A stretch of DNA of 64,000 nt from Minisyncoccota bacterium (GTDB taxonomy: Bacteria; Patescibacteriota; Minisyncoccia; Phycocordibacterales; GCA-2401445). Below, piece after piece: positions 17,661 through 46,584 of the stretch (position 1 is its first letter; each line of letters begins with the position of its first letter). Location of the stretch: contig JBBDJV010000015.1 of the NCBI GenBank assembly GCA_040879725.1, forward strand, positions 32,127-96,126, read 5' to 3'. Position numbers and translations under genes: made by a program. Below the pieces are notes generated by a model. That model did no database searches and had not been told where the DNA came from. It was given only the letters and a program-made list of their open reading frames with translations.

Positions 17661-17803
17661 CTATAGTAGAGGAGGTATTGACGATTACAGTCAGTGGTAT
17701 ACACTAGATATATTATGAATAGAGTAGGAAACATATTCTTTTTCTTTGCCTTTAGCCAGCACTCTGGTTGAGGTTTTGCTTGTTTCTGGAAATATTCTTG
17801 AAA

Positions 17804-17836
17804 AAAGCCAGCTCTCAACCAGAGCTGGCTTTTTAG
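17804..17836 (+). terminator. rho-independent terminator after the giant gene
   Basis: A perfect 9-bp stem 'gccagctct'/'agagctggc' with loop 'caacc', followed by TTTTT. Confidence 0.7.
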
Positions 17837-18096
17837 TTCTTTACAACAAAATACAAATTATGCACGCTATGACTACGCAAAGAAAACACAAACGAACACC
17901 GGGTGCTACATTCACGCTCAAAACTGATTTTGTTATTTCCTTCCACGAAGGTCGGAAAAAAATCACACGCACGTATTCCACCGGAACAAAAGGGAAGTTG
18001 GTAGCAACATCTTTTTCCCAAGGGTCTTGGTTCTTTGTTCTCATGATGCCCGACTGAAACGTCATTAACGTCAATGAGTGTAAGCTCATATAAACC

Positions 18097-18131
18097 ACAC
18101 CCCACTTAGACACGTTCAAGTGGGGTTTTTA
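18097..18131 (+). terminator. second rho-independent terminator
   Basis: Stem 'ccccactt'/'aagtgggg' with loop 'agacacgttc', followed by TTTTT. Confidence 0.65.
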
Positions 18132-18249
18132 ATTAATGGCAAACAATACGTGGTTTTAAAATTTTCTTTATTCCTATAGAAATTTTTATCTACAACAGAG
18201 ACACAACTCTCACTACTCGCATGATATACTTTTAACGAGACTTGCCTCT

Positions 18250-25282: not shown

Positions 25283-26416
25283 ATGAATAGAATATTCTTT
25301 TCTATTACTTTGTTTTGTATCTCATTTGGGCTACTATACCCGTTTTCTTTGAGTGCGATAACGATAGGAGTTGCCTCCACAACAATCAGAGTTTCTATTT
25401 GTGGCGACGGAATAGTTAATCAAGGGGAAGACTGTGATCCTCCCGGATCAGGAAATTACAGTACGAGTATTGCTGGCAGGGAGTGTAACTCGCTGTGTGA
25501 GTGGGCGCCGTACTGTGGAGATAGTGTCGTGCAAACAAGTTTCGGAGAAGAATGTGATGACGGAAATAATACCTCAAAAGATTTTTGTTCCGCTGAGTGT
25601 CTTGCTGAGGAAATTGTATTAAATACTGGTGGTGGAGGAGGAGGGGGAGGTGCGGGTATTTTCCCAGGAGGAAGTTTTGCTCCACCTTCAAACTCAGACG
25701 TTACTATAACTGGTAAAGCGTATCCAAACTCCACTGTTACTATCCTTAAAGACGGAGAGGTTATTGGTGAGGTAGCTACAGATAGTAATGCAGATTTTTT
25801 ATTCACAACAAGTGGTATCACTCCGGGAACCGCAACATTCGGTTTTTGGGCAGAAGATAGCAAGGGGCTACGTTCTATTTCCTATACTACGACCTTTGAG
25901 GTTATCCAAAGTGCAGTAACAACTGTTTCCGGAGTATATCTTCCACCAACAATACGAGTTGAACCTCGTTCCCTTGATCGAGGAGACACACTTACTATTG
26001 ATGGAACTTCAGTTCCAGATGCTGTTATTACTGCCCAAATAAGTGGAGATGATGAGTACTTGGAAACAGTAACTGCGGAAACAGACGGTTCTTGGGAGCT
26101 TTTGTTTGATACATCACCGATACCAAACGATTCTTATACTGCTCGTGCGTCTTTCAGACGAAGTGACACAAACGGATTAACAATTGAAAGTGGTTTTGGG
26201 CAAGCACTTTCATTTTTTGTGGGAGTCGATGCGGTACCCGATACCGGACCCTCAGACCTAAACCTTGATGGGAGAATAAATATTGTGGACTTTTCCATTA
26301 TGCTTTTTCATTGGGGAACAGACGGAGCCGGTTCAAGCCCATCGGCTGACATAAATGGAGATGGAAGAGTAAACTTAACAGACTTTTCCATTATGATTTT
26401 CAACTGGACGGGATAG
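25283..26416 (+). CDS. secreted protein with a cysteine-rich repeat, an Ig-like region and a C-terminal dockerin
   Basis: Signal peptide. 'CGDGIVNQGEDCDPPG' and 'CGDSVVQTSFGEECDDGNNTSKDFCSAEC' are Myxococcus-type Cys-rich repeats. Then a poly-Gly linker. The C-terminus has two dockerin Ca-loops, 'DLNLDGRINIVDFSIMLFHW' and 'DINGDGRVNLTDFSIMIFNW'. Confidence 0.65.
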   Translation: MNRIFFSITLFCISFGLLYPFSLSAITIGVASTTIRVSICGDGIVNQGEDCDPPGSGNYSTSIAGRECNSLCEWAPYCGDSVVQTSFGEECDDGNNTSKDFCSAECLAEEIVLNTGGGGGGGGAGIFPGGSFAPPSNSDVTITGKAYPNSTVTILKDGEVIGEVATDSNADFLFTTSGITPGTATFGFWAEDSKGLRSISYTTTFEVIQSAVTTVSGVYLPPTIRVEPRSLDRGDTLTIDGTSVPDAVITAQISGDDEYLETVTAETDGSWELLFDTSPIPNDSYTARASFRRSDTNGLTIESGFGQALSFFVGVDAVPDTGPSDLNLDGRINIVDFSIMLFHWGTDGAGSSPSADINGDGRVNLTDFSIMIFNWTG

Positions 26417-27538: not shown

Positions 27539-29272
27539 ATGAAAAAAGGTTTATTTGTGTTTATCGGTATCTGTGCTGTTTTCGTAAGTGTGCTTACCTT
27601 TCTTCCCTCGGTTGCTTACGCAGCGGGGTCACTCGTGCTTTCTCCTCCAACCGGTGTGTATACTGCTGGGAGCACGTTTACCGTTCGGGTACTTGTAAAT
27701 ACAGATGGACAAGCAATAAATGCAGCGGAAGGTGAGATTACTTTCAATCCAAGCGAGCTGTCTGTTGTGGCTGTGTCACAAGCCGGATCTATTTTTAATC
27801 TTTGGACGGTGGAGCCGACATATTCAAATGGAGCAGGAACAATTTCATTTGGTGGTGGAAGTCCGAAGGGGTACACCGGTAGCTCAGGAACGGTTATTAC
27901 TATTACGTTCCGCGCCCTGAAAGAAACCAGTGCCACAGTACGATTTTCTTCCGGGTTGATACTTGCTGCGGACGGAAAGGGTACTAATATTATTGGAGCT
28001 CTTTCTTCTGGTTCTTACACACTACAGTCAAGCAAGCAAACACCTCCTCCTGAAATTGTAGTACCTGATAATTCTCCAAGTGCTCCAGCGGTTGTTTCTT
28101 CGACACATCCGAATGAAACAAAGTGGTATCCACTTACAGACGCAAAACTTTCTTGGGAGGTACCCGACAGTGTGAGTGCGGTGCGATTACTTATCGACCA
28201 AACAGAGTATACAATTCCTACCGTATTTTACGGTGAGCCGATAAGTGAAAAGTTGATTGAAGACCTTGATAACGGCGAGTGGTATTTCCATGCACAGTTT
28301 AGGAACGCAGACGGATGGGGCAAGGTGCGACACTTTAGAATAGGAGTTGATACTGAGTTGCCGTCTTCTTTTGAAATACGCGAACCTGAAGACCGAGATC
28401 CAACCAGTCCAAACACACAACTTATTTTTGACGCTACCGATGAAGTTTCGGGTATTGCGCGATACGAAATCCAGATTGGGAATGATGAGCCGATTGTATG
28501 GATAGATACTGAAGGAGATGGTTTATATACACTTCCAACACTTCCAGCAGGAAAACATACTCTTATTGTAAAGGCATTTGATGGTGCTGATAACTATCTT
28601 GTGCAAACCAAGACTGTTACGATTGTCGCACTCGGAGCTCCTACGTTTACCGAGTATCCTGACACTATCTCAACCGATACTATTTTAGTTATGCGTGGTA
28701 CCGCTATTCCAAACAGTACTGTTACCGTGTGGACCAGACGAGGAGGAGAAGAGCCGGTTCCTTACACACTGACATCTGATGCTGATGGAGGATTTACCTT
28801 TATCTCTGATAATGAGCTCGCAAAAGGAGTTCATACATTTTGGGCAACAGTAACCGACGAGCGGGGAGCTCAGAGCGAGCCAAGTGCTGAGGTTAAGGTA
28901 GTGGTCAGAGACCCGGGGTATGTCAGAATCGGATCATTTGCTCTCAGTATTCTTTCACTTATAGTTCCATTGGTTGGTGTTATTGCGCTTCTGGTTTTCC
29001 TCTTCTGGTATACTCGCCATAAAATTATTTTGTTACGAAAGCGATTAAATAAAGAAGTGTTTGAAGCGGAAGCCGCATTACATAAAGCGTTTATCACTTT
29101 GCAGAAGGGAGCAGAGAAACAAGTGAAGGCTCTTGAGGCAGTTTCTGAGAAGCGTAAGCTTACTGCAGAGGAAAAAGATATTCTCGCAAACCTTAAAAAG
29201 AATCTGACTCAAGCGGAAAAGGCGGTCGCCAAAGAGATTGAAGATATTGAAAAGGTACTGAAGAGTAATTAA
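27539..29272 (+). CDS. membrane-anchored surface protein: cohesin-like N-terminal domain, Ig-like domains, TM helix and cytoplasmic coiled-coil tail
   Basis: 'GSTFTVRVLVNTDGQAINAAEGEITFNPSELSVVAVSQAGSIFNLW...ISFGGG' is paralogous to the N-terminus of 26472..27536. The TM is IVPLVGVIALLVFLFWY and the protein ends '...IEDIEKVLKSN', like the fragment at 1..612. Confidence 0.6.
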   Translation: MKKGLFVFIGICAVFVSVLTFLPSVAYAAGSLVLSPPTGVYTAGSTFTVRVLVNTDGQAINAAEGEITFNPSELSVVAVSQAGSIFNLWTVEPTYSNGAGTISFGGGSPKGYTGSSGTVITITFRALKETSATVRFSSGLILAADGKGTNIIGALSSGSYTLQSSKQTPPPEIVVPDNSPSAPAVVSSTHPNETKWYPLTDAKLSWEVPDSVSAVRLLIDQTEYTIPTVFYGEPISEKLIEDLDNGEWYFHAQFRNADGWGKVRHFRIGVDTELPSSFEIREPEDRDPTSPNTQLIFDATDEVSGIARYEIQIGNDEPIVWIDTEGDGLYTLPTLPAGKHTLIVKAFDGADNYLVQTKTVTIVALGAPTFTEYPDTISTDTILVMRGTAIPNSTVTVWTRRGGEEPVPYTLTSDADGGFTFISDNELAKGVHTFWATVTDERGAQSEPSAEVKVVVRDPGYVRIGSFALSILSLIVPLVGVIALLVFLFWYTRHKIILLRKRLNKEVFEAEAALHKAFITLQKGAEKQVKALEAVSEKRKLTAEEKDILANLKKNLTQAEKAVAKEIEDIEKVLKSN

Positions 29273-29358: not shown

Positions 29359-29928
29359 ATGGATGATGTATACGAAAAGAAAATATACGAATACTACCTG
29401 CGAGAGAAACGAATTCCCGTGTATCGTGTTATTGCAAAGCTTTGTGGTTTCGCTTCTACAAATGCCGTAAGTCGTTTAGTAACACGGTTGCTCGAGTCAC
29501 GCTTCCTTGAACGTAATTCTCGAGGAAAATTAATTCCCGGAGCGCGTATGGGAAGTGTTCGTTTGCTGGGTCTTGTTGAGGCGGGTTTTCCTTCTCATGC
29601 TGAAGAAGCTGACTTAGACACGATAACCATAGATGAATTTTTAATCGAGAATAGAGAAGCGAGTTATATGTTAAAGGTAAAGGGTGACTCTATGATCGAC
29701 GCTGGTATTTGTCCGGGTGACTTTGTTATTGTAGAGCGAAAGAATACCGCAAAAGTGGGAGATATTATCGTTGCCGAGGTGGACCAGGAATATACGATGA
29801 AATACTTGGCAGAGAAAAATGGAGTGAGATATCTCAAGCCTGCAAATAAAAAGTATCGACCTATTTTCCCTTGTGAAAGTCTAACAATAGTTGCAGTAGT
29901 TCGTTCAGTGATCAGAAAATATGCATGA
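29359..29928 (+). CDS. lexA: LexA-like repressor (wHTH plus S24 peptidase domain)
   Basis: N-terminal wHTH. The catalytic Ser is in 'KGDSMIDAGI' and the Lys in 'TMKYL', with the same spacing as LexA/UmuD. Confidence 0.8.
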   Translation: MDDVYEKKIYEYYLREKRIPVYRVIAKLCGFASTNAVSRLVTRLLESRFLERNSRGKLIPGARMGSVRLLGLVEAGFPSHAEEADLDTITIDEFLIENREASYMLKVKGDSMIDAGICPGDFVIVERKNTAKVGDIIVAEVDQEYTMKYLAEKNGVRYLKPANKKYRPIFPCESLTIVAVVRSVIRKYA

Positions 29929-31148
29929 CGCAACGATGCATCTTACATCTTGATGGAGACGGTTTTTTTGCCGGTTGCGAAATGGCGGTTAACCCAAAAC
30001 TTAAAGGAAGAGCGGTTGTTGTTGGTGCCGAGAAGGGGATTGTAACCGCGTTGAGCTATGAAGCCAAAGCACTCGGAATCGCGCGGGGTATGGCTACGTT
30101 TCAGATACGAAAAGACTTTCCTGAAGCGGTGGTACTGCCGGGCAATTACCGCTTGTATCGTGAGTTATCTAAAAGAATGAATGCGATTGTTTCGAGATAC
30201 GCGCACAGGGTTGAGCCATACAGTATCGATGAGTGTTTTGCTGATATTACGGGTATTCCCGAACGTTTTGGAAAAACTCCGGAAAGCTTTGGACGCATGG
30301 TGCAGAAAGTGCTTTTGTCGGAACTAAACGTTTCTTTTTCAATGGGTATTGGCAGTACGAAAGTTCGCGCAAAAACAGCATCAAAACTAGAAAAACCTTT
30401 TGGCTGTAGTGTGTTTGAACTGCGCAAAAATCAAAATAGCTTAATGGCACTACCTGTCGGATCTTTGTGGGGAATAGGCAAAAGTAGCGCGATGGCTTTG
30501 AATGCACTTGGCATTTGGACTGTCGGGGATTTTATGGCAAAGGAGAGGTTTTTTATCAATAATTTTTTTAATAAGCAGGTATGTGAATTATGGAGTGAAC
30601 TGAAGGGTGAGTCGTTGTACGATATTTCAGCTAAGCGTGAGTCTCCTCAGTCGGTAAGCCATACGCGTACATTCACACCAGCAAGTGGATCACTTAAAAC
30701 ACTATGTAGAGAGCTTACGTGCCATGCGGAAGCAGTGGCATTTCGTTTGCGGATGCAAGGTCTCGCTGCACAGGAGTATTCTTTTTTTGTGAAAACAAAA
30801 AGTTTCGAGTATAAAACATTCAAAGTGTCTTTTGTATCACCAACGCATGACGATCATGAAATTGTACCCGAAATACTTAGGTGTTTACGAAATGCCATAG
30901 TGCCCGGGGGAATGTACCGAGCAACCGGAGTTACAGCTCTTGGTGTTGTTCCGTCTATTGCTGTGTCGGGGAATATGTTTGCGCGAGAAGTAAATTCAAA
31001 GGCTCTGTACGGGGCATTTGACCGTATTTTGCGAAGGTATGGCAGTAGTGCAATCATGCTGGCATCCGGAATGCATCCCCAAAGAAAGGCAAAGAAGAAG
31101 TTCGAAGAGCTTCATTTTTCGATACCCTGTATCGGGTATGTGGATTAG
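29925..31148 (+). CDS. Y-family DNA polymerase (DinB/UmuC-like)
   Basis: 'ILHLDGDGFFAGCE' and 'SIDECFADITG' are the Y-family palm motifs. It overlaps lexA by 4 nt. Confidence 0.8.
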   Translation: MTQRCILHLDGDGFFAGCEMAVNPKLKGRAVVVGAEKGIVTALSYEAKALGIARGMATFQIRKDFPEAVVLPGNYRLYRELSKRMNAIVSRYAHRVEPYSIDECFADITGIPERFGKTPESFGRMVQKVLLSELNVSFSMGIGSTKVRAKTASKLEKPFGCSVFELRKNQNSLMALPVGSLWGIGKSSAMALNALGIWTVGDFMAKERFFINNFFNKQVCELWSELKGESLYDISAKRESPQSVSHTRTFTPASGSLKTLCRELTCHAEAVAFRLRMQGLAAQEYSFFVKTKSFEYKTFKVSFVSPTHDDHEIVPEILRCLRNAIVPGGMYRATGVTALGVVPSIAVSGNMFAREVNSKALYGAFDRILRRYGSSAIMLASGMHPQRKAKKKFEELHFSIPCIGYVD

Positions 31149-34311: not shown

Positions 34312-34737
34312 ATGGCAAAGAAAATACTTAAAAAACTTAAATTACAAATTCCTGGAGGCGCAGCTAATCCTGCTCCTCCAGTAGGTCCTGCGCTTGGACA
34401 GGCGGGAATTAACATTGGTGACTTCGTAAAGAAGTTCAATGACGCAACTCAGGACAAGCGAGGTGATATTATTCCGGTTGTTATTAGCGTGTATGAAGAT
34501 AGAAGCTATGACTTCGTGCTTAAAACACCACCGGCAACAAATCTTATTCTAAAAGCAATAAACCTACAGAAAGGTTCAGGCAAGAATGCAGTACAGAAGG
34601 TAGGTAAAATTACCAAAGCCCAAGTACGCGAGGTTGCTGAGAAGAAAATGGCGGATCTGAACGCAAACGACATTGAAGGCGCAATGAAAATTATCGAAGG
34701 AAGTTGTCGTTCAATGGGAGTAGAGGTTGTACAATAA
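34312..34737 (+). CDS. rplK: 50S ribosomal protein L11
   Basis: '[26 protein letters not shown]' is the L11 N-terminal motif. Confidence 0.95.
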
Positions 34738-34749
34738 TTCAAAAAATAA

Positions 34750-34790
34750 AAACAAAAAACCCGCACTTGCGAGTTTTTTGTTTTTAGAGT
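34750..34790 (+). terminator. probable intrinsic terminator
   Basis: A short GC stem 'cgca..tgcg' followed by 'gagttttttgttttt'. Confidence 0.4.
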
Positions 34791-34816
34791 AGTTTTCAGT
34801 GTAGAAAGGAAAAATA

Positions 34817-35233
34817 ATGAAAACAAGTATTTATGTCGGATGTGCATTAACGCACGCTCCGCAAGAGTACCGTGACAGTATTGCAGACTTGAAATGGCGC
34901 CTCGGGCATTATTTTAGAGTAAAGGAGTTTCTTGGCTTAACCGCGGGGGATGAGTTTGCGGTATACCACGAAGATATTCGGTGTGGGGTCGGTGGAGCAG
35001 ATATTTTTGTGGCGTTTGCTGACTATCCTTCAACAGGCCTTGGTCTTGAGCTTGGTGCCGCGTTTTGGCGTTTTCAAAAACCAGTATTGTTATTGTGGCA
35101 GGAGGATGCTGTGGTAACGCGTCTCATAAAGGGAATCGATGACTATCCTCATTTGATACGCAAGACGTACAAGACGCTCAGTATGCAGAGTGCCGGAAAG
35201 ATTATTGTAAGAACAATTCCAGGTTTACTTTAG
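34817..35233 (+). CDS. nucleoside 2-deoxyribosyltransferase / DNPH1(Rcl)-like protein
   Basis: 'IYVGCALTHAPQEY' (N-terminal Rossmann-like start) and 'ADIFVAFADYPSTGLGLELGAAFWRFQKPVLLLW' (the conserved Glu in an 'ELG' context) match the NDT/Rcl fold pattern. Confidence 0.45.
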   Translation: MKTSIYVGCALTHAPQEYRDSIADLKWRLGHYFRVKEFLGLTAGDEFAVYHEDIRCGVGGADIFVAFADYPSTGLGLELGAAFWRFQKPVLLLWQEDAVVTRLIKGIDDYPHLIRKTYKTLSMQSAGKIIVRTIPGLL

Positions 35234-35411
35234 CAACAACCCCGCTTTTCGGAAGCGGGGTATGTTTTTGGTATTGCATTGAAAATAGTATGTACATTTT
35301 ATTTTTACCTAAGCTTAGCTTAGGTAAAAATCAGATTTGTATAGTTTTTATTAAATGCGCACGCCGGCGTGCGCATTTAAATGGCTCTATATAAGCCATA
35401 TTTGACCTACA

Positions 35412-35903
35412 TTATTCTCGCTCGAGGGTGAGCCATTTGAAGGGGGGCGTGTGTTCTGTGTGGTGTTCTTCAGAAATTTTCTTCGTGAAGTTGTCATACG
35501 GGGGAAAATAAGTATCGCCTTGTTCATCACTTTCAATTAAGGTGAGATAGAGCCGAGAGGTTGCGGGGAGTAGCTGTTTATATATTTCTCCACCTCCGAT
35601 AATAAAAATTTCTTGGGACTCTATTGTTCTGGCATAGGCAAGTGCGTCTTCGGGGGAAGGTACAACAACCACGCCAGCAGGCGCGAAATTCGCGTTGCGC
35701 GATATGACGATAGAGGTGCGACCAGGGAGTGGACGTCCGATGGATTCGTAAGTTTTGCGTCCCATGATGATGGGGTGATTCATTGTAAGTTGTTTAAAGC
35801 GCTTCAAGTCACTCCCGATACGCCAAATAAGCTCATTGCCTTTTCCAATAACGCGTGTTTCTTTGCCAAGAGCGACAATCATGCTTACAATAGGTATATT
35901 CAT
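35412..35903 (-). CDS. folA: dihydrofolate reductase
   Basis: 'MIVALGKETRVIGKGNELIWRIGSDLKRFKQLTMNHPIIMGRKTYESIGRPLPGRTSIVISRN'. I moved the start from the ORF-track start at 36056 to the ATG at 35903 (MNIPIVSMIV...). Confidence 0.85.
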   Translation of the reverse strand: MNIPIVSMIVALGKETRVIGKGNELIWRIGSDLKRFKQLTMNHPIIMGRKTYESIGRPLPGRTSIVISRNANFAPAGVVVVPSPEDALAYARTIESQEIFIIGGGEIYKQLLPATSRLYLTLIESDEQGDTYFPPYDNFTKKISEEHHTEHTPPFKWLTLERE

Positions 35904-35919
35904 TTGGTAATAGTAACGT

Positions 35920-36411
35920 ATGGATAAAGAAAAGTACAAGCGACCATCCTGGGATGAATATTTCATGGGATTGGTAAAAGAAGTAGGTACTCGAGCAACT
36001 TGTGATAGAGGAAGATCTGGTTGTGTTATTACTCGTGACCGAAGAATACTTTCCACTGGTTATGTTGGAGCTCCATCTGGGTGTAAGGATTGTGATGAAG
36101 CAGGGCATGAGATGCATACCGTAACACATCCAAATGGTAAAACATCACAACATTGTATTCGAACGAGTCACGCTGAAGCAAACGCCATAGCGCTTGCCGC
36201 GAGGAATGGAGTGATGCTTGATGGTGCGACTCTTTATTGCAACATGACACCTTGTTATGCTTGTGCAAAGATTATTATCAATGCTGGTGTTGTACGAGTT
36301 GTCGTTCGTACCGATTACCATGCAGGAGAAAGAAGTAAAGAAATTTTTAAAGAAGCGGGAGTTGCTTTTGAAATGACGGAAGGAGGTATGGAAACATATG
36401 ATAACCAGTAA
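35920..36411 (+). CDS. dCMP deaminase (cytidine/deoxycytidylate deaminase family)
   Basis: Zn-binding 'HAEANA' and 'PCYACAKII'. Confidence 0.85.
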   Translation: MDKEKYKRPSWDEYFMGLVKEVGTRATCDRGRSGCVITRDRRILSTGYVGAPSGCKDCDEAGHEMHTVTHPNGKTSQHCIRTSHAEANAIALAARNGVMLDGATLYCNMTPCYACAKIIINAGVVRVVVRTDYHAGERSKEIFKEAGVAFEMTEGGMETYDNQ

Positions 36412-36413
36412 TT

Positions 36414-36728
36414 ATGATTGATATAAAAAAATTACAAAAAGAAGTTTTTCAAAACAAGATTGAAAAAGGTTTTAATACCACAGATGTAGCTCTTGAGTTT
36501 TGTCGCGCACACGAAGAGCTTTCAGAAGCGTTTAAGAAATATAACCAAAAGGAAGCCGGTGTTGCTGAAGAGCTAGCTGACGTCGCAATTTTCCTACTTG
36601 GCATGGCTGAGATCCTTGGGTTTGATTTGGAGTCAGAACTAACACGAAAAGTAGAAATAAATAAAAAAAGAAAATATAAGAAAGTAAATGGAGTGTTAGT
36701 GCGAGAAAAAACAGATATTGACCCGTAG
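36414..36728 (+). CDS. MazG-like nucleotide pyrophosphohydrolase
   Basis: 'ALEFCRAHEELSEAFKK...EELADVAIFLLGMAEILGFDL' is the all-alpha NTP-PPase EExxE/D signature. Confidence 0.65.
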   Translation: MIDIKKLQKEVFQNKIEKGFNTTDVALEFCRAHEELSEAFKKYNQKEAGVAEELADVAIFLLGMAEILGFDLESELTRKVEINKKRKYKKVNGVLVREKTDIDP

Positions 36729-37571
36729 CTACACAATCATCTTCGCTTTGATAGGGTCGTGGTGTTTGTAGTTTTCAAGTTTGATATCGTCCATGGTGAA
36801 CGCGTCAATATCAGTGATGTCTGGGTTAAGCCATAGTGTCGGAGGTGTTAAAGGAGTACGAGAAAGTTGTTCTTTTACTGCGTCAAAATGTTCGTGATAA
36901 ATATGAGCGTCGTTCAAGGTGAGTATGCATTCATGTGCTTTTTTGCCTGTTACTTGTGCCACCATTGCGAGCATGAGGGCATAGGAAGCGATGTTGAAAG
37001 GAACTCCCAAGAACATATCACAACTCCTCTGTATCATGTGAAGTGAAAGTTTGTCGTCGTGTACAAAAAACTGGAACATCATATGGCAAGGAGGAAGTGC
37101 CATGTCGTCCATTTCGCCCGGGTTGAACGCGGTAACAAGTAGTCGTCTGTCGTGTGGGTTTGTTTTTATCTTCTGAATAACTTCCGCAAGTTGATCAACC
37201 GTTGTTCCGTCCGGCTTTTTCCATTTTCTCCATTGTATTCCGTACACTCGTCCAAGATCTCCATCAGACTGAGCTTTTGGCTTCCAATAGTCTGATTCCG
37301 CATTTGCGGTCCAGATTGTTGAATCTTTACCGACAAGTTTTTTTAGGTCGTTGTCATTCATGCGGTCTTTTTTCCCGCCTGCTTCAATAAACCAGAGTAG
37401 TTCACTTTTTACTGCCTTAAACGCAAGCTTTTTCGTGGTAACTGCAGGGAAGCCATCTTCCATGTTAAAGCGCATTTGAATAGCAAATAACGCTCGAGTG
37501 ACCGCATTTCTTGTTTGTCTGTCGTGTCCTTCATCAAGGATGCGCTTGAGTACATCATTATATATTTTCAT
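36729..37571 (-). CDS. thyA: thymidylate synthase (ThyA)
   Basis: 'ALPPCHMMFQFFV' carries the catalytic Cys and 'GVPFNIASYAL' has Asn at the dUMP-specificity position. The gene ends tail-to-tail with the MazG-like gene at zero gap. Confidence 0.9.
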   Translation of the reverse strand: MKIYNDVLKRILDEGHDRQTRNAVTRALFAIQMRFNMEDGFPAVTTKKLAFKAVKSELLWFIEAGGKKDRMNDNDLKKLVGKDSTIWTANAESDYWKPKAQSDGDLGRVYGIQWRKWKKPDGTTVDQLAEVIQKIKTNPHDRRLLVTAFNPGEMDDMALPPCHMMFQFFVHDDKLSLHMIQRSCDMFLGVPFNIASYALMLAMVAQVTGKKAHECILTLNDAHIYHEHFDAVKEQLSRTPLTPPTLWLNPDITDIDAFTMDDIKLENYKHHDPIKAKMIV

Positions 37572-37631
37572 ATAATTATAATAGCATATCCCATTAAAGC
37601 CTTATGTTTCGCCATGTGTTACTATAAGGAG

Positions 37632-38252
37632 ATGAAAAAAGGACTATTTATCGTTATGGACGGGTGCGAAGGGGCAGGGAAAAGCTCAATGATTGAGGTT
37701 TTGAAAGAACATTTTTCTGAGAAGAACTTCCTATTTACACGCGAGCCGGGTGGGTCGCTGTTTGCTGAACAGATACGGACACTCATGCTTTCTCCTGAAG
37801 CAAAAGAAGCGAGTGCGGAAACTCAGTTTGGGTTAGTGTGGGCTGCACGGCACGACCACGTGACACAAACCATTGAGCCTGCTCTCCAAGAAGGACTTAC
37901 GGTAGTGAGTGACCGGTTTGATTCTTCTACATTTGCATACCAACTGTATGGCCAGAAAAGTCTACATTTAAGAGAGCACTTTTGGAATACGCGAGACGTG
38001 TATTTAAAGCACACCGTGCCAGACCTCTATGTATTCTTTGATGTTGATCCAAAGGTGGGAATGGAGAGGGTGCAGAAGCGAAAAGGAGAACGGACGCACT
38101 TTGATGAGCGTGATCTAAGTTTTCACAATGAAGTAAGAAAAGGATTTAAGGAGTTCTTAACGCAAGTTCCGAGTGTTGTTATTGATGCGAATAAAACGCA
38201 AGAAGAAGTAAAGAAACTTTTTATAGCAGAGATAGAAAAAATAATGCAATGA
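37632..38252 (+). CDS. tmk: thymidylate kinase
   Basis: P-loop 'FIVMDGCEGAGKSS', and an RBS 'aggag' before ATG 37632. I moved the start from the ORF-track start at 37515. Confidence 0.85.
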   Translation: MKKGLFIVMDGCEGAGKSSMIEVLKEHFSEKNFLFTREPGGSLFAEQIRTLMLSPEAKEASAETQFGLVWAARHDHVTQTIEPALQEGLTVVSDRFDSSTFAYQLYGQKSLHLREHFWNTRDVYLKHTVPDLYVFFDVDPKVGMERVQKRKGERTHFDERDLSFHNEVRKGFKEFLTQVPSVVIDANKTQEEVKKLFIAEIEKIMQ

Positions 38253-38671
38253 ACCTCAGAATAAAAAAGTTACACAGCGATGCAATTATTCCTTCATACG
38301 CGCACGAGGGTGATGCGGGCATGGATTTGTTCTCACTTGAAAAAGTTGTGATAGAACCCAATACGCAAGTATCACTTGCTACGGGTATTGCGCTTGAAAT
38401 ACCGGAAGGGTACGTAGGTTTGATTTGGGATAAGAGCGGATTGTCGCATAAGCACAGACTAAAAACATTTGGAGGTGTCGTAGACGCAGGGTATCGAGGA
38501 GAAGTGCGAATTGGAATTATGAATTTGTCAGACACTTCATATGTTTTTGAAAAGGGACACAAGATAGCACAGATGTTGATTCAACCTGTCGTCTCGGCTA
38601 CTATTACGGAGTCAGACAACCTTTCAGACTCATCTCGTGGTGAAGGTGGTTTTGGAAGTACAGGAAAATGA
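38249..38671 (+). CDS. dut: dUTP diphosphatase
   Basis: 'AGMDL', 'GVVDAGYRGEV' and 'RIAQ' are dUTPase motifs. It overlaps tmk in ATGA. Confidence 0.9.
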   Translation: MNLRIKKLHSDAIIPSYAHEGDAGMDLFSLEKVVIEPNTQVSLATGIALEIPEGYVGLIWDKSGLSHKHRLKTFGGVVDAGYRGEVRIGIMNLSDTSYVFEKGHKIAQMLIQPVVSATITESDNLSDSSRGEGGFGSTGK

Positions 38672-40374
38672 AAAACGAACTGGAAAAACATATTACAGAA
38701 GCGCTCATAAGTCTTGGTATTGAAGTTACCAAGGGTGTTGTAGTTGAACGTCCAGCGGACAGTACTCACGGAGACTGGTCGAGTACTGTTGCACTTGCAT
38801 ACGCAAAGCAGGCAAAAAAAGCTCCCTTGGCTCTCGGAGAGTCGCTTGTCGCTATTCTGAAAGAAAAAAATATACAACACGTAAAAGATATTTCACTTTT
38901 GCATCCCGGGTTTATAAACATCACACTTACTTCGGAGTACTACACGGAACGCATTAAAGATATCCTTTTAAAAGGAAAAGAGGGTGAGGTGAGTGGTGAG
39001 TTTAAGGGTAAGCGGGTTATGGTTGAATATACCGACCCAAACCCGTTTAAGGTTTTTCATATCGGCCATTTGATGAACAACACAATCGGTGAGTCTATCG
39101 CCTGTTTGATGAGTGCGGGTGGTGCAGACGTGGTGCGTGCTAACTATCAAGGAGATGTCGGTTTGCACGTGGCAAAGGCGATATGGGGAATGCGCCAGAG
39201 TAGGCCGGCATTTCCGGAGGATACCGATGATCTTAAAACAAAAATGACTTTTGTTAGCAATGCGTACGCATACGGTGCTAGTCAGTATGAAAGTGATGAG
39301 CAAGCAAAAAAAGATATTGATGCAATTAACAAAGAAGTCTACACACGTGAAAATGAAGATATAAATGTATACTACGACAAAGGGCGCGCGTGGAGCTTGG
39401 AACATTTTGAAGAAGTTTATGCACTTCTCGGTACAAAGTTTGATATCTACTATTTTGAAAGTGAGGTTGCTACTAAGGGTGTTGAAATTGTTCGCAAGCA
39501 TATAGGGACAGTGTTTGAGGAGAGCAACGGTGCGGTAATATATCGTGGCGAAAAAAATGGATTGCACACACGAGTGTTTATTAACTCACAAGGACTTCCA
39601 ACGTATGACGGAAAAGATATCGGACTTACTTGGAGAAAAGAGGAAACAGACCCAAGTGATATTTCTGTTGTCGTGAGTGCTGAAGAACAGAAAGAGTATT
39701 ACAAAGTACTCGTATCAGCGATACGCGAGATTGATCCCGCGATAAGTGAAAAGATGAGACATGTGACACACGGCATGATGCAAGGGCCTGACGGGACTAA
39801 ATTATCATCAAGAAAAGGTACCGCACTTACCGGAGAGTCACTTATTGAAGAGGTTGAAGAACTTGTATGGGAAAAGCTTCGTGAGAGGGATATGAGTGAA
39901 GAGGATAAAAGAGAAGTGATGCAAGCTGTTTCTGTTGGCGCGGTGAAGTATTCAATACTCCGTTCAAAAACAAGTAGTAACATTGCGTTTGATTTTGATA
40001 AATCAATTTCGTTTGAAGGAGACTCGGGTCCGTACTTGCAGTATACTGCCGTGCGCGCGCGTTCGGTTTTGGATAAAGCGGGAAGCCAATTTCTTGCAGA
40101 TGCTACTCCGGTGTTTGAGGAAGTAGGAAAAGCCCTTTATCTTCTACTTGATAAATTTGAAGAGGTTGTGGTTCGCTCGCAGCGAGAGCTCGAACCGCAT
40201 CATATAGCGACGTACGCAATAGAGCTCGCAAGTGCATTTAACGCTTTCTATGCCAATACGCCTATTCTTAATGTTCCTGAAACACCTTCTCGTCTTGCTC
40301 TTGTGCATGCGGTTGAGTTGGTACTTACACACTCTCTTTCACTTCTCGGTATACGGGTCCCTAAGAAAATGTAG
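38668..40374 (+). CDS. argS: arginine--tRNA ligase
   Basis: 'PNPFKVFHIGHLMNNTIG' (HIGH) and a C-terminal DALR-type anticodon-binding region. It overlaps dut in ATGA. Confidence 0.9.
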   Translation: MKNELEKHITEALISLGIEVTKGVVVERPADSTHGDWSSTVALAYAKQAKKAPLALGESLVAILKEKNIQHVKDISLLHPGFINITLTSEYYTERIKDILLKGKEGEVSGEFKGKRVMVEYTDPNPFKVFHIGHLMNNTIGESIACLMSAGGADVVRANYQGDVGLHVAKAIWGMRQSRPAFPEDTDDLKTKMTFVSNAYAYGASQYESDEQAKKDIDAINKEVYTRENEDINVYYDKGRAWSLEHFEEVYALLGTKFDIYYFESEVATKGVEIVRKHIGTVFEESNGAVIYRGEKNGLHTRVFINSQGLPTYDGKDIGLTWRKEETDPSDISVVVSAEEQKEYYKVLVSAIREIDPAISEKMRHVTHGMMQGPDGTKLSSRKGTALTGESLIEEVEELVWEKLRERDMSEEDKREVMQAVSVGAVKYSILRSKTSSNIAFDFDKSISFEGDSGPYLQYTAVRARSVLDKAGSQFLADATPVFEEVGKALYLLLDKFEEVVVRSQRELEPHHIATYAIELASAFNAFYANTPILNVPETPSRLALVHAVELVLTHSLSLLGIRVPKKM

Positions 40375-43050: not shown

Positions 43051-43079
43051 TCCACAAAACTCTCCAAAAGTGCTAGAAT
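43051..43079 (+). promoter_or_regulatory. candidate promoter with extended -10 for ileS
   Basis: 'tccaca', a 17-nt spacer, then 'TGcTAGAAT'. This places the transcription start after the ORF-track ATG at 43078. Confidence 0.4.
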
Positions 43080-43101
43080 GACTACATTCGGGCACTTTTT
43101 T

Positions 43102-46100
43102 ATGAGCGAAGAAAATAAAAAATTACAAAAAACACGAGGGGAAAAAGAAAGAGAGATTCTTGAGTTTTGGCGTGAAAATAAGGTGTTTGAGACTTCAGAG
43201 CAAAAACCCGCTCCAAAGGGTGATTTTGTATTTTATGACGGCCCTCCTTTCGCGACAGGTCTTCCTCACTATGGACACATGCTTCCGGCTACTATCAAGG
43301 ACGTAATTCCGCGTTTCAAGACGATGCAAGGTTTTCGCGTGCGCAGACGTTGGGGGTGGGACTGTCACGGGCTACCAGTTGAAAATCTTATTGAGAAAGA
43401 ATTAGGTCTCAAAGACAAGCAAGATATTCTAAAGTACGGAATTGGGAAGTTTAACGTGGAAGCAAAAAATAGTGTTTTGCGCTATGCGGATGATTGGCGT
43501 GAACGTGTTCCACGGTGGGGAAGATGGATAGATATGGAGCAGGACTACCGAACCATGGACCTTGCGTACACAGAATCTATTTGGTGGATGTTTAAAACTT
43601 TGTATGAAAAAAATCTGATTACCGAAGGGTACAAGTCTATGCACCTGTGTCCGCGGTGCGAAACAACTCTTTCGAATTTTGAAGTGAACCAAGGGTATAA
43701 AGATATTACGGATATTTCAGTGTACGTTGCATTTGAATTATCTGATACACCAAACACTTTCCTCCTCGCATGGACAACAACTCCATGGACGCTTCCGGGA
43801 AATGTCGCACTTGCCGTGCATCCTGATGTTGCGTACGTAACAGTAGAACAAGGTGGTAAGAAATATATTCTTGCCGAAGAGCTAGCTCAAAAGAGATTTG
43901 CTATCGGGAGCGATGCCGTACTCAGCGGTTCGCCTATAAAAGGAAGTGAACTTATCGGAAAAGCATACAAACCGGTATTTCCGTACTATGCGGAAGATAC
44001 CACTCTCGAACAGAGAGAAAATGGATGGAAAGTGTACGGCGCGGATTTTGTTACTACGGAAGATGGAACAGGCATTGTGCATATCGCTCCTGCGTTTGGA
44101 GATGACGACATGAAGCTCGGAGAAAAAGAATCACTACCGTTTGTTCAGCATGTTACAACAGGTGGAGTGTTCAAACCGGAAGTAAGTGATTTCGCGGGAG
44201 TGAGTGTGAAGCCGAAAGATGACCATCAGTCAGGTGATGTCGCGATAATTAAATATCTTGCTGGGAAAGGAGTACTTTTTGCAAAAGAAAAAATTATTCA
44301 CTCGTATCCGCACTGTTGGCGGTGCGATACTCCACTTCTTAATTACGCATCAAGCTCTTGGTTTATTAAAGTAACCGCATTTAAAGACAGGCTGGTAGAA
44401 GCAAATAACAATGTTTCTTGGGTACCAAAAGAAATGGGCGAAGGGCGTTTCGGTAAGTGGCTTTTGGGTGCTCGTGATTGGGCAATATCTCGCTCGCGGT
44501 TTTGGGGAGCACCTCTGCCGGTATGGAGAAATGAAGAATCGGGAGAATTATTTATTCCAGGATCGGTTTCTGAACTAAAAGAAAAAATAGGATTTAGAAA
44601 TACGTATTTGGTAATGCGACACGGTGAGGCGGACAGTAATGCGCAAAATATTTTAAGTGGAAAAAAAGATAACCCTCATCACGTAACAGAAAAAGGTAAA
44701 AAGCAGGTTGCTCATGCGGTTGAAAAACTGAAGGGAACATCAGTGGATGTTGTTTTCGTTTCTCCATTTGTTCGCACGAAAGAAACCGCAGAAATGGTAA
44801 AAGAAGCACTCGGGCTTACTGACACACAGATAGTTGTAGATGAGAGAATAGGGGAAATAGATACGGGTGATTTTAATAACACACCTATAGACGAGTATCG
44901 TGCTTACTTTAAGAGTACCGCTGAGAAGTTTTCAAAACCCGCACCAAACGGAGAAAGTTTGCGCGACGTGCGAAGACGAGTAGGCGAGTTTCTGTATGAA
45001 ATTGACGCAAAATATGAAGGCAAAACCATTTTAATTATTTCTCACGAATATCCTATCTGGCAGTTGTATTCTGTTGCGGAAGGATGGGATGAACGTGGTT
45101 CTATTCAGGCAAAAAATGACCGAGATGATTTCGTTGAAACGGGAAGTGTTAACAAAATTTCGTTTGCACGTCTGCCGGTTAATGAATCGTTTGAAACAGA
45201 CTTACATCGTCCGTATATTGATGAAATTGAACTCACCGCAAAAGACGGAACAAAACTGAAAAGAGTACCCGAAGTGTTTGACTGCTGGGTTGAGTCTGGG
45301 TCAATGCCGTTTGCTTCTCGGGGGTATGTTGGGAAAGCACTTCCTGACTTTGATCCGAATACGGGAGTTGGTTTTCCGGCAGACTTTATCGCTGAAGGGC
45401 AAGACCAAACCCGTGGTTGGTTTTACTCACTTATTGTTCTCGGGGTTGCATTGTTTGGAAAATCTCCGTTTAAGAATGTTGTGGTAAACGGTGTGGTGCT
45501 TGCCGGAGATGGGCAGAAAATGAGTAAACGACTTAAGAATTATCCCGATCCGATGGAAGTCGTTGAAACGTACGGTATGGACGCGCTTCGATTGTATTTT
45601 CTCGGTTCACCGCTGGTGAAAGCGGAAGATGTTTCTTTTTCAGAAAAAGGAGTTGATGAGGTAATGAAGAAAAATATCGGCAGACTTGAAAATGTTGTTA
45701 TGTTCTATCAGATGTTTAGTGCGGATGCTGAAGCGACTACAGAGAGCCCACATGTTCTCGATAGATGGATTGTCAGTACGCGTAATAATCTCATTGCGTC
45801 TGTTACGGCTTCACTCACAGCGTATCAGTTTGACCGAGCAGTCAGAGCACTTTCTGATTTTATTGATGATCTTTCAACGTGGTATGTTAGGCGTTCTCGA
45901 GACCGATTCAAAGGGGAAGACAGAGAGGATGCGGGACATGCACGAAGAGTACTTCGAGAAACACTCTCTCTCTTTTCGCAAGTTAGTGCGCCGTTTATTC
46001 CTTTTACCGCAGAGTCTGTGTATCAAATCGTAAAACAAGATGGAGCACCGAAAAGTGTGCATCTCACTGTGTGGCCGGTTGCGGGAGAAATTGACGAAAC

Positions 46101-46584
46101 CCTTTTGTCTGAAATGAAGACAGTAAGAGAAGTGGTGTCACTGGCATTCGAAGCAAGAACCAAAGCAAAAATTAAAGTACGGCAACCTCTCGCATCCCTC
46201 ACAATAAAAACAACACTGCCTACAGTGCTACTTGAACAGATTGCGGAAGAGGTAAATGTAAAAGAAGTTCGGATTGGAGAAACAAAAAATGAAGAAGTAC
46301 TACTCGACACTGTACTTACTCCGGAGTTGATAGAGGAAGGGTACATGCGCGATGTGCTTCGACACATTCAAGAGAAAAGAAAGGACGCAGGTCTAGAGAC
46401 GAGTGACTATATTACACTTACCGTAGTGGGGAATAAAGAAGTTCAAACCCTTATTTCTTCTATGAAAAAAGAATTAGAACGCGTGGCGCAAGTGTCGCGT
46501 ATTGAATTCGAGGAAAAGAGTGAAATGGAGCCGACACTTACACTGGGAGATATGAGTCTTTCGGTTTCAATAAAGAAAGTATAA
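43102..46584 (+). CDS. ileS: isoleucine--tRNA ligase with an embedded histidine-phosphatase (PGM-family) domain
   Basis: Class I motifs 'PFATGLPHYGHM' and 'KMSKRLKN', plus an editing domain. Between 'WAISRSRFWGAPLPVW' and 'RVPEVFDCWVESGSMPF' lies a ~210-aa insert containing 'LVMRHGEADSN' and 'LIISHEYP'. Confidence 0.9.
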   Translation: MSEENKKLQKTRGEKEREILEFWRENKVFETSEQKPAPKGDFVFYDGPPFATGLPHYGHMLPATIKDVIPRFKTMQGFRVRRRWGWDCHGLPVENLIEKELGLKDKQDILKYGIGKFNVEAKNSVLRYADDWRERVPRWGRWIDMEQDYRTMDLAYTESIWWMFKTLYEKNLITEGYKSMHLCPRCETTLSNFEVNQGYKDITDISVYVAFELSDTPNTFLLAWTTTPWTLPGNVALAVHPDVAYVTVEQGGKKYILAEELAQKRFAIGSDAVLSGSPIKGSELIGKAYKPVFPYYAEDTTLEQRENGWKVYGADFVTTEDGTGIVHIAPAFGDDDMKLGEKESLPFVQHVTTGGVFKPEVSDFAGVSVKPKDDHQSGDVAIIKYLAGKGVLFAKEKIIHSYPHCWRCDTPLLNYASSSWFIKVTAFKDRLVEANNNVSWVPKEMGEGRFGKWLLGARDWAISRSRFWGAPLPVWRNEESGELFIPGSVSELKEKIGFRNTYLVMRHGEADSNAQNILSGKKDNPHHVTEKGKKQVAHAVEKLKGTSVDVVFVSPFVRTKETAEMVKEALGLTDTQIVVDERIGEIDTGDFNNTPIDEYRAYFKSTAEKFSKPAPNGESLRDVRRRVGEFLYEIDAKYEGKTILIISHEYPIWQLYSVAEGWDERGSIQAKNDRDDFVETGSVNKISFARLPVNESFETDLHRPYIDEIELTAKDGTKLKRVPEVFDCWVESGSMPFASRGYVGKALPDFDPNTGVGFPADFIAEGQDQTRGWFYSLIVLGVALFGKSPFKNVVVNGVVLAGDGQKMSKRLKNYPDPMEVVETYGMDALRLYFLGSPLVKAEDVSFSEKGVDEVMKKNIGRLENVVMFYQMFSADAEATTESPHVLDRWIVSTRNNLIASVTASLTAYQFDRAVRALSDFIDDLSTWYVRRSRDRFKGEDREDAGHARRVLRETLSLFSQVSAPFIPFTAESVYQIVKQDGAPKSVHLTVWPVAGEIDETLLSEMKTVREVVSLAFEARTKAKIKVRQPLASLTIKTTLPTVLLEQIAEEVNVKEVRIGETKNEEVLLDTVLTPELIEEGYMRDVLRHIQEKRKDAGLETSDYITLTVVGNKEVQTLISSMKKELERVAQVSRIEFEEKSEMEPTLTLGDMSLSVSIKKV

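Follow-up and report, generated by a model that had tools for sequence, protein, structure and literature searches.

A DNPH1-like protein family associated with thymidylate synthesis genes in CPR bacteria and its predicted role in nucleotide sanitation

What would a relative of DNPH1, an enzyme studied almost exclusively as a target for drugs against human cancer and with bacterial counterparts that are essentially uncharacterized, be doing among the thymidylate synthesis genes of a bacterium? The question is raised by positions 34817-38671 of a 64-kb stretch of DNA (hereafter, the window) from a Candidatus Paceibacterota genome, part of the candidate phyla radiation (CPR; Patescibacteria). 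There, seven adjoining open reading frames (ORFs), all located where the original prediction, made by a model from the letters alone, had placed them, fill 3.9 kb with scarcely any non-coding DNA. Six of the products, namely, dihydrofolate reductase (DHFR), dCMP deaminase, a MazG-like pyrophosphatase, the thymidylate synthase ThyA, the dTMP kinase Tmk and dUTPase, were confirmed by matches to Pfam or NCBIfam families. The seventh is an NDT/DNPH1-fold protein of 138 aa (P0001), encoded on the plus strand at 34817..35233 and identical to a hypothetical protein deposited at NCBI from a Candidatus Paceibacterota metagenome-assembled genome (MAG). As judged from its modeled structure, this protein is a member of the nucleoside 2'-deoxyribosyltransferase (NDT) superfamily that lies closest to Rcl/DNPH1, yet represents a distinct family rather than an orthologue. 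With moderate confidence, it is proposed to police the monophosphate pool at the point where thymidylate is made and phosphorylated.

The 138-aa protein and its relatives of known structure

Comparison of the 138-aa protein with Pfam (to E<=10), NCBIfam, PHROGs and PADLOC returned zero matches. That it is nevertheless NDT/DNPH1-like, as had been proposed originally, was borne out by direct and profile searches, by structure prediction and by profile alignment. A phmmer search of the PDB detected Rcl/DNPH1 (E=1e-3), and a family profile built from 127 representatives matched Rcl/DNPH1 at 2.4e-12, BcmB at 4.7e-7 and NDTs at 2.3e-6 or weaker. The AlphaFold2 (AF2) model, predicted as a single chain (pLDDT 94.3, pTM 0.89), comprises five strands alternating with helices, in line with the NDT-type Rossmann-like alpha/beta fold; at about 140 residues, its size resembles that of DNPH1. 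When this model was compared with the PDB using Foldseek, chains of Rcl/DNPH1, rather than of some different fold, topped the list (probability 1.00, E=4e-7 to 1e-5, TM-score about 0.7-0.78, identity 22-28%), followed by MilB/BcmB and then by NDTs. Finally, global hhalign comparison with human DNPH1, for which a sequence agreeing with 14 numbered residues quoted in papers was used, gave a probability of 98.2% over 128 columns.

DNPH1 (2'-deoxynucleoside 5'-phosphate N-hydrolase 1, also termed 5-hydroxymethyl-dUMP N-hydrolase) is a homodimer whose active sites are completed across its interface, and it cleaves 2'-deoxynucleoside 5'-monophosphates, preferentially 5-hydroxymethyl-dUMP, to base and deoxyribose 5-phosphate. 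In this enzyme, Tyr24, Asp80 and Glu104 form the catalytic triad, Ser98 and, from the partner subunit, Ser128' bind the 5'-phosphate, and Arg30 and His56, which annotated DNPH1 sequences conserve, read the base (PMC10603095, PMC10483697). Across the 127 family representatives, the triad is retained as Tyr6 (99% conserved), Asp53 (98%) and the nucleophile Glu78 (100%), as are the two phosphate-binding positions, with Ser72 standing for Ser98 (Ser in 88%) and Thr101 for Ser128' (98% Ser or Thr; 53% Ser, 45% Thr). By contrast, both base-reading residues have been lost, with Arg30 giving way to Thr12 (Thr in 71%) and His56 to Phe38 (Phe in 96%), and the DNPH1 shielding loop is deleted in the family. 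A further DNPH1 residue, Glu55, has been proposed to activate the water that releases the glycosyl-enzyme intermediate (PMC10603095, PMC10483697). In the hhalign alignment, ambiguous by one residue at this point, Glu37 lies one column off Glu55, and position 37 is E/D in 66% of the family. Because the triad and the phosphate-binding Ser/Thr pair have been kept, the 138-aa protein is predicted to be a DNPH1-type enzyme that would act on 2'-deoxynucleoside 5'-monophosphates (dNMPs) via a covalent intermediate on Glu78. The sugar preference is suggested by Tyr6, since deoxyribose substrates go with a Tyr, as opposed to a Phe, as the first residue of the triad, as seen upon comparing Tyr24 of DNPH1 with Phe17 of MilB (PMC10603095). 

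Beyond their low sequence identity, the metazoan and CPR proteins differ in several motifs. The N-terminal YFCGSIRGG of DNPH1/Rcl is replaced by YVGCALTxAP in the CPR family (with Cys9 in 95%), which, together with Phe38 and Tyr118, serves as a family signature, V-L-(E/D)-F stands in the place of LTEHV, and the stretch before the nucleophile, QPSLGVGYE in Rcl, reads P-S-T-G-L-G-x-E, with Ser72 being shared.

Some databases would instead label such proteins classical NDTs, enzymes that exchange bases between deoxynucleosides. Indeed, the 138-aa protein shares with the Lactobacillus-type NDT/PTD enzymes (PF05014) its superfamily, a covalent Glu nucleophile and a GxGxE-type motif, NDT structures appear lower on the Foldseek and profile lists, certain homologues give weak PF05014 matches (the fusion P0078 scores 23.4 bits, relative to a cut-off of 28.8) and one homologue was named 'nucleoside 2-deoxyribosyltransferase' by JGI. 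The 138-aa protein itself, however, fails to match PF05014 even at E<=10, and the family profile favors DNPH1 over NDT about a million-fold. In Lactobacillus leichmannii NDT, Asp/Asn bind the 5'-hydroxyl. Such binding of the free 5'-OH of the nucleoside via Asp/Asn is described for NDTs (PMC12884076), whereas the CPR protein presents Ser72 at this position, as do the nucleotide hydrolases, and has kept the second phosphate-binding Ser/Thr. As every genomic partner of the family described below moreover uses nucleotides and not nucleosides, the classical NDT assignment is considered very unlikely.

Thymidylate genes beside and fused to the family

An exhaustive profile search revealed a sizeable bacterial family of nearest DNPH1 relatives, with 131 representatives (50% identity) at E<=1e-30 and 491 at E<=1e-10. 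As far as its sequences indicate, the family is widespread in CPR metagenomes and is uncharacterized; those homologues looked up individually are 31-76% identical to the 138-aa protein. The closest relative (locus L001) contains an identical seven-gene block. Among metagenome contigs, the NDT-like gene follows a gene for dCTP deaminase (DCD) and precedes those for ThyX and Tmk in L002, lies near genes encoding dCMP deaminase, DHFR, ThyA, serine hydroxymethyltransferase (SHMT) and Dut in L003, is found beside genes for ThyA and Tmk in L005, sits between those for DCD and ThyX in L006/L007 and lies beside that for ThyA in L008/L009.

A genome scan limited to one genome per species yielded 22 loci, all from CPR-type MAGs and one of them ending at a contig edge. 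In 14 of these genomes, a thymidylate synthase gene lies <=1.4 kb from the NDT-like gene, with the synthase being ThyA (usually together with FolA) in eight cases and ThyX in six. The source of dUMP likewise varies by locus between dCMP deaminase and DCD, and SHMT is often encoded there as well. In relatives, the pair encoding dCMP deaminase and the MazG-like protein is replaced in the same slot by the DCD gene. The locus thus looks like a clear case of non-orthologous replacement within a fixed slot, with ThyA and FolA exchanged in place for ThyX and the deaminase/MazG-like pair for DCD. That slot is bordered by secE-nusG-rplK on one side and by argS on the other; secE-nusG-rplK precedes the NDT-like gene in L002, L004, L021, L022, L026-L029 and L031, and ArgS is encoded after the cluster in L002, L005, L021, L022, L026, L028, L029 and L031. 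In those CPR genomes sharing the same slot and the same kind of cluster, NusG and RplK are 50-92% identical to their counterparts in the window. Adjacency to the synthase gene also holds where the rplK anchor is ~5-6 kb off (L015/L016, in which 6 nt separate the NDT-like gene from thyA) and in L014, L017, L020 and L024, where this anchor was not detected. In L017, thyA, folA and the NDT-like gene are all found on one strand.

In the window, folA and thyA are the sole minus-strand genes within a plus-strand run extending from 52 to 57816 (57 kb), and those relatives that hold ThyX in the folA/thyA slot usually encode it on the opposite strand, too. Several TPA_asm MAGs (L012, L013, L017, L019 and L032) bear organism labels ('Gammaproteobacteria', 'Saccharibacteria') that clash with their CPR-like loci where this could be checked, with L012 being 76-92% identical to the window and the NusG and RplK of L013 being 59% and 63% identical to those of the window, respectively.

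Gene fusions add independent support for the thymidylate tie. The NDT-like domain is joined to Tmk in P0063, P0105 and P0139 (Tmk domain E=7e-22, 4e-10 and 2e-19, respectively) and, with a weaker match (E=3e-4), to a deaminase-like domain in P0137; P0063 is encoded in the same ThyX...argS...ileS region. Neighborhoods and fusions together tie the family to thymidylate synthase, Tmk and dCMP/dCTP deaminases and, as such, yield a concrete hypothesis as to its substrate. No description of a linkage between a bacterial DNPH1-like protein and thymidylate synthesis was found in the literature searched, and so far as that literature goes, both the family and its conserved tie to this pathway in CPR bacteria are undescribed.

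Two of the fusions encountered are unusual in their own right. P0137, from L036, is Trp-rich where the family has Gly (for example, GLWYELW in place of GLGYELG), and translation of the locus with table 11 fails to yield P0137; a likely explanation is that its lineage recodes UGA (code 25-type) and that the wrong code was applied. In L033, a Tmk-ThyX fusion of 778 aa (11346-13682) is found beside a degenerate NDT-like match and a DCD gene. A second conserved partner of the family was not apparent, as unannotated ORFs near NDT-like genes matched none at another locus, identical copies on overlapping contigs aside. The assignment of one such neighbor, a 253-aa protein in L028, as MazG-like was dropped, given zero similarity.

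The proposed pathway and the substrate of the DNPH1-like protein

Taken by themselves, the six canonical genes of the block appear ordinary. The folA gene (35412..35903, minus strand; 163 aa from the ATG at 35903) encodes a DHFR (DHFR_1, PF00186, E=7.5e-51). It is followed by the dCMP deaminase gene (35920..36411, plus strand; 163 aa), the product of which contains the HAE and PCxxC zinc motifs and matches dCMP_cyt_deam_1 (PF00383, E=5.8e-22), the PHROG dCMP deaminase family phrog_174 (E=8.5e-44) and, at a score under that profile's cut-off, the ComEB-type TIGR02571 (E=6e-30). The MazG-like gene (36414..36728, plus strand) encodes a single-domain NTP pyrophosphohydrolase of 104 aa (PF12643, 31.1 bits, cut-off 27; phrog_3301 pyrophosphatase, E=3e-13), the translation of which includes the metal-binding motifs EExxE...EExxD (E35-L-S-E38 and E53-L-A-D56) and which weakly matches small MazG-like pyrophosphatases, MazZ and DCTPP1 in the PDB. 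Next come thyA (36729..37571, minus strand; 280 aa), for folate-dependent thymidylate synthase (PF00303, E=1.9e-98; TIGR03284, 316.3 bits, cut-off 108.35), tmk (37632..38252, plus strand; 206 aa from the ATG at 37632), for dTMP kinase (PF02223, E=1.1e-37; TIGR00041, 146.8 bits, cut-off 83.25), and dut (38249..38671, plus strand; 140 aa), for a trimeric-type dUTPase (PF00692, E=1.3e-29; TIGR00576, 147 bits, cut-off 102.55). With these family matches, the claim that the complete route from dCMP through dUMP and dTMP to dTDP, plus dUTPase, is gathered in one place was upheld, with recycling by DHFR being included.

The block is bordered upstream by rplK, encoding ribosomal protein L11 (34312..34737, plus strand; Ribosomal_L11 domain on the L001 and L034 orthologues), and downstream by argS, encoding arginyl-tRNA synthetase (38668..40374, plus strand; Arg_tRNA_synt_N/tRNA-synt_1d/DALR_1 on the L001 orthologue). 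The two tight junctions originally pointed out can be read from the coordinates, with 16 nt separating the divergent start codons of folA (ATG at 35903) and the dCMP deaminase gene (35920) and no gap being found between the convergent MazG-like gene (ending at 36728) and thyA (stop beginning at 36729). In L001, the folA orthologue encodes 162 aa and lies at an equal distance of 16 nt from the deaminase gene. Only 2 nt separate the end of the dCMP deaminase gene from the start of the MazG-like gene, and the two are almost certainly co-transcribed. The folA and thyA genes lie 825 nt apart, thyA and tmk are divergent across a 60-nt spacer, and tmk/dut and dut/argS each overlap by 4 nt, such that tmk, dut and argS are translationally coupled.

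The Asn in PFNIASY of ThyA was originally taken to mark a true dUMP methylase as opposed to a hydroxymethylase. This residue reflects specificity for uracil over cytosine and on its own would fit a hydroxymethylase as well; in T4 dCMP hydroxymethylase, cytosine is read via Asp179 (PMC6400193). The prediction that ThyA is a true dUMP methylase is nonetheless sound on other grounds, because the protein scores at the level of an NCBIfam equivalog (NF002497, 333.7 bits, cut-off 327), retains its C-terminal tail, along with the catalytic Cys in LPPCH, the RR pair and the Tyr in VYGIQWR, and is encoded next to folA. The latter counts since DHFR is needed only if dihydrofolate is produced, and only true synthases produce it (PMC6400193).

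The same evidence bears on the idea that ThyA and the 138-aa protein form a pair of the MilA/MilB type, in which a ThyA homologue hydroxymethylates a pyrimidine nucleotide and a glycosidase then frees the 5-hydroxymethyl base for a secondary metabolite. MilA is described as a ThyA homologue (PMC5175136), providing precedent for a ThyA-type gene beside that of an NDT-type nucleotide glycosidase, as seen here. MilB and BcmB, N-glycosidases of CMP and 5-hydroxymethyl-CMP, moreover share the fold of the 138-aa protein (Foldseek E about 1e-5) and its phosphate-binding Ser, and are among its structure and profile matches. However, MilB has Phe where the CPR family has Tyr6, the latter implying deoxyribose, and Arg23 of MilB, which binds the phosphate/hydroxymethyl (PMC10603095), corresponds to Thr12. 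Furthermore, the CPR family partners equally with ThyX, its partner is a true thymidylate synthase or ThyX and no hydroxymethylase, and no biosynthetic genes lie nearby. A MilA/MilB-type pair is, as such, barely plausible.

The reaction sequence of the block has parallels elsewhere. The T4 precursor genes (gp56 dCTPase/dUTPase, Cd, Td, Frd and gp1) specify the route from dCTP through dCMP, dUMP and dTMP to dTDP, with recycling by DHFR, and gp56 together with Cd supplies the deaminase with dCMP from dCTP. In humans, DCTPP1 feeds dCMP to DCTD and thymidylate synthase (TYMS; PMC7162842), and the sequence of reactions is again that of the CPR block. In contrast to both, the CPR genes are chromosomal and contiguous, hold a conserved position in a bacterial lineage and include no hydroxymethylase; the dCTPase role of the CPR MazG-like protein is, moreover, inferred. 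Because its gene lies 2 nt from that of the deaminase, because the pair is swapped for dCTP deaminase in relatives and given the DCTPP1 precedent, the MazG-like protein is probably a supplier of dCMP from dCTP or 5-modified dCTP, rather than a mere cleaner of the pool.

In the pathway proposed on this basis, the MazG-like protein would hydrolyze dCTP or 5-modified dCTP to dCMP, feeding the deaminase, which would supply dUMP. Dut would supply dUMP from dUTP and hold dUTP levels low, ThyA would methylate dUMP to dTMP, FolA would regenerate tetrahydrofolate from the dihydrofolate released by ThyA, and Tmk would convert dTMP to dTDP. The NDT-like enzyme, forming a covalent 5-phospho-2-deoxyribosyl-Glu78 intermediate on dNMPs, would hydrolyze a look-alike of dUMP or dTMP to free base and deoxyribose 5-phosphate, ahead of phosphorylation by Tmk towards DNA. 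That it acts in this manner as a dNMP N-glycosidase that sanitizes the pool is the favored reading, held with the moderate confidence noted above. The likeliest substrate would be 5-hydroxymethyl-dUMP (hmdUMP) or a related 5-substituted dUMP, which could arise from deaminated scavenged 5-hydroxymethyl-dCMP, from oxidized thymidylate or from capture of water by the methylene intermediate of thymidylate synthase. The parallel to the human system holds in outline, in that hmdUMP arising from hydroxymethyl-deoxycytidine is removed by DNPH1 (PMC10603095) and the CPR gene sits with those for dCMP deaminase and Tmk. Such sanitation would explain why the family is fused to the deaminase, a producer, as well as to Tmk, a consumer. 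The link to ThyA and ThyX alike suggests that the synthase reaction or oxidized thymidylate may be further sources of the substrate. Under acid quench, intermediates of the flavin-dependent synthase take up water, yielding hydroxymethyl-dUMP (PMC4913046).

Transcription signals around the NDT-like gene were also considered. An A/T-run-flanked, terminator-like hairpin lies between rplK and the NDT-like gene (34747..34786; called on the minus strand as an 18-pair stem followed by a T run, with an A run upstream on the plus strand), as defined by consensus match only. A second such hairpin, with a 10-pair stem (6 GC pairs) and a T run, is found directly 3' of the NDT-like stop codon (35239..35261, plus strand). 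As terminator-like hairpins are present on both sides, the NDT-like gene is here probably its own transcription unit. A promoter-like site (TTGCCA-17-TACAAT, 10/12 consensus matches) is situated inside the 5' end of folA (35863..35891, plus strand), 29 nt upstream of the dCMP deaminase start; such sites are consensus matches only and are no more numerous in the region than expected from shuffled sequence. The 178-nt spacer between the convergent NDT-like and folA genes contains, besides the terminator, two perfect palindromes within 35262-35411 (~35303-35330 and ~35353-35380), and the three hairpins in this spacer matched no Rfam family.

Several points weigh against the sanitizer reading. The substrate is deduced from neighbors and from a homologue of 22-28% identity in structural alignment. 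Neither Arg30 nor His56, two residues conferring hmdUMP preference on DNPH1, is conserved, such that DNPH1 and the CPR enzyme may not share exactly the same substrate. The shielding loop is absent as well, and the counterpart of Glu55, the proposed activator of water, is conserved only in part, at a position where the alignment is ambiguous by one. Capture of water by the synthase is documented under acid quench and not as an in vivo by-product. The NDT-like gene appears to be transcribed alone in this genome, and seven of the 22 representative loci contain no thymidylate gene within 10 kb. Where such genes are present, co-localization could in part be synteny inherited within one phylum rather than independent selection, and the three Tmk fusions may stem from one fusion event.

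Another reading is a non-specific dNMP N-glycosidase that serves catabolism or base salvage, releasing deoxyribose 5-phosphate as a source of energy and free bases to be used again, with the thymidylate neighbors being there as historical synteny. Rcl/DNPH1 takes several dNMPs as slow substrates (PMC10603095, PMC10483697), and the absence of DNPH1 base-specific residues, the loci devoid of thymidylate neighbors and the predicted monocistronic nature of the gene here all agree with such a role. Yet adjacency has outlasted exchanges between ThyA and ThyX and between deaminases as well as changes in gene order and strand, and it is also seen at loci whose rplK anchor lies at a distance or went undetected. 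In addition, fusions to Tmk and to the deaminase-like domain would be left unexplained, and neither deoC nor any other catabolic gene is present in the window. A purely catabolic enzyme is hence judged unlikely.

The main rival to the sanitizer reading is that the 138-aa protein is a 5-phospho-2-deoxyribosyl transferase, using an abundant scavenged dNMP as donor of deoxyribose 5-phosphate to thymine or uracil and so generating dTMP or dUMP for Tmk or the synthase. CPR bacteria largely rely on scavenged nucleotides, a way of life that such an enzyme would suit. The covalent-Glu chemistry and the phosphate-binding residues are the same as in hydrolases, fusion to Tmk is suited to product channeling, the counterpart of Glu55 is only partly conserved and Phe38, in place of His56, could stack the incoming base. 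Precedent is offered by DmtZ of Z-genome phages, an NDT superfamily member that hydrolyzes dAMP and transfers deoxyribose 5-phosphate to a base, and the gene of which adjoins or is fused to that of another dNTP-pool enzyme, the dUTPase-like DutZ (PMC12884076). Like the CPR protein, DmtZ has the NDT fold, acts on dNMPs, as predicted for the former, counts Rcl/DNPH1 and MilB as its closest solved structures and is devoid of the Asp/Asn residues with which NDTs bind the 5'-OH (PMC12884076). The two differ, however, in that the DmtZ triad is Tyr/Asn/Glu, as opposed to Tyr/Asp/Glu, and in that DmtZ is phage-encoded and serves 2-aminoadenine DNA, whereas the CPR family is chromosomal and thymidylate-linked. 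Furthermore, no similarity of the 138-aa protein to phage proteins was detected, either by tblastn of 50,697 phage records or in PHROGs, and searching viral structures in BFVD returned weak generic matches to the NDT fold (E>=2.8e-5, 11-22% identity). Also counting against a transferase are the full route from dUMP to dTMP next door, leaving a bypass without obvious need, the fact that the closest relatives among solved structures are hydrolases and the acidic residue at position 37, both here and in 66% of the family. Although stronger than the other alternatives, a transferase is thus considered rather improbable.

On the sanitizer reading, policing of monophosphates just ahead of Tmk would matter to organisms whose DNA is thought to derive for the most part from scavenged nucleotides. 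Were the 138-aa protein a transferase after all, which is doubtful, it would provide scavenging CPR bacteria with a route to dTMP or dUMP that is independent of folate and ribonucleotide reductase and that feeds Tmk. A close second reading, if true, would make the protein a dedicated enzyme that repairs hydroxymethyl-dUMP formed on the side by ThyA and ThyX alike, and DNPH1-type sanitation an ancient companion of thymidylate synthesis.

The block in its chromosomal setting

The original prediction also noted a resemblance to phage nucleotide-metabolism modules, raising the question of whether the block as a whole is a phage-derived or recently transferred island. Six of the seven proteins match PHROG families and, as noted above, folA and thyA alone interrupt a long plus-strand run. 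The gene set, moreover, parallels the dCTPase, Cd, Td, Frd and gp1 of T4. The PHROG matches are, however, uninformative as to origin, because these enzymes are universal. GC content across the 64-kb window is flat (0.40-0.46), no phage structural genes or integrase were found in the window and no tRNA (ARAGORN) or Rfam element was detected across its whole length. The same slot and kind of cluster recur in many CPR genomes, tmk and dut are translationally coupled to argS and the NDT-like protein has no phage match. An island of this sort is therefore scarcely credible; the block is a resident chromosomal thymidylate-supply locus, flanked by housekeeping genes, and the resemblance to phage modules is a functional analogy only. 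A phage origin of the NDT-like gene in particular had been entertained and was dropped once the tblastn search returned no match.

The remainder of the window consists of housekeeping or cell-surface genes. These include secE, nusG, rplK, argS, ileS, recO, genes for a class-II and other aminoacyl-tRNA synthetases, metG, thrC and tatD, as well as rpsF, ssb, efp, recA, ftsK, genes for an ABC transporter, a LexA-like/DinB pair and genes for cohesin/dockerin proteins. No nucleotide-metabolism gene was found outside the block among the other annotated ORFs of at least 70 aa in the window, nor was a second copy of any block function, with tblastn searches for thyX and dcd in the window likewise proving negative. 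As such, the concern that equivalent genes might be scattered elsewhere did not materialize within the window, and because the other annotated ORFs do not serve nucleotide metabolism and the arrangement recurs in relatives, the clustering is no chance effect.

The upstream border of the block is unusual in that rplK lacks a downstream rplA, such that the nucleotide block stands where rplA-rplJ-rplL would normally come (34737-34817). No L1 homologue is encoded in the window or after rplK in Paceibacteria-type loci, and one is present in L008, L013, L015, L016 and L033.

A sister NDT/DNPH1-like subfamily, 27-32% identical and detected using an alignment of 16 sequences, was found on six viral or proviral contigs (L037-L042, with L037-L039 being IMG/VR contigs) of non-CPR composition (GC 0.47-0.67). 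Its motifs read IY[IL][AG]C[AG]LTHVPRE and FPSTGLGIELQ. In L037 (6946-8516), L038 (6958-8507) and L039 (6915-8519), the gene comes directly after a same-strand gene encoding a YaaC-like protein of ~350 aa (PF14175), with the two ORFs overlapping in L037 and L038 and lying 12 nt apart in L039. These three loci, with no thymidylate genes near and no PADLOC match, present an unexplained two-gene module.

Other features of the window and of its closest relative, L001, were also noted. Upstream of the block, a single unannotated plus-strand ORF of 5654 aa spans 17 kb (696-17660), and a LexA-like S24 peptidase gene overlaps that of a DinB/IMS-family translesion polymerase by 4 nt (29359-31148, plus strand), a pair kept in L001 and L034. 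Downstream, isoleucyl-tRNA synthetase (43078-46584, plus strand; 1168 aa) contains a histidine-phosphatase (His_Phos_1) domain inserted at residues 511-672 that lies between the catalytic domain's two halves, an architecture common to L001 and L035. Between hypothetical genes on the argS side and ileS, L001 contains a diversity-generating retroelement (17607-19008; bAvd and an RVT_1 reverse transcriptase) that has no counterpart in the window. Finally, dockerin- and cohesin-domain proteins are encoded close together on the plus strand (25283-26416 and 27539-29272), as they are in L001, which hints at a surface assembly resembling a cellulosome in a genome of the CPR.

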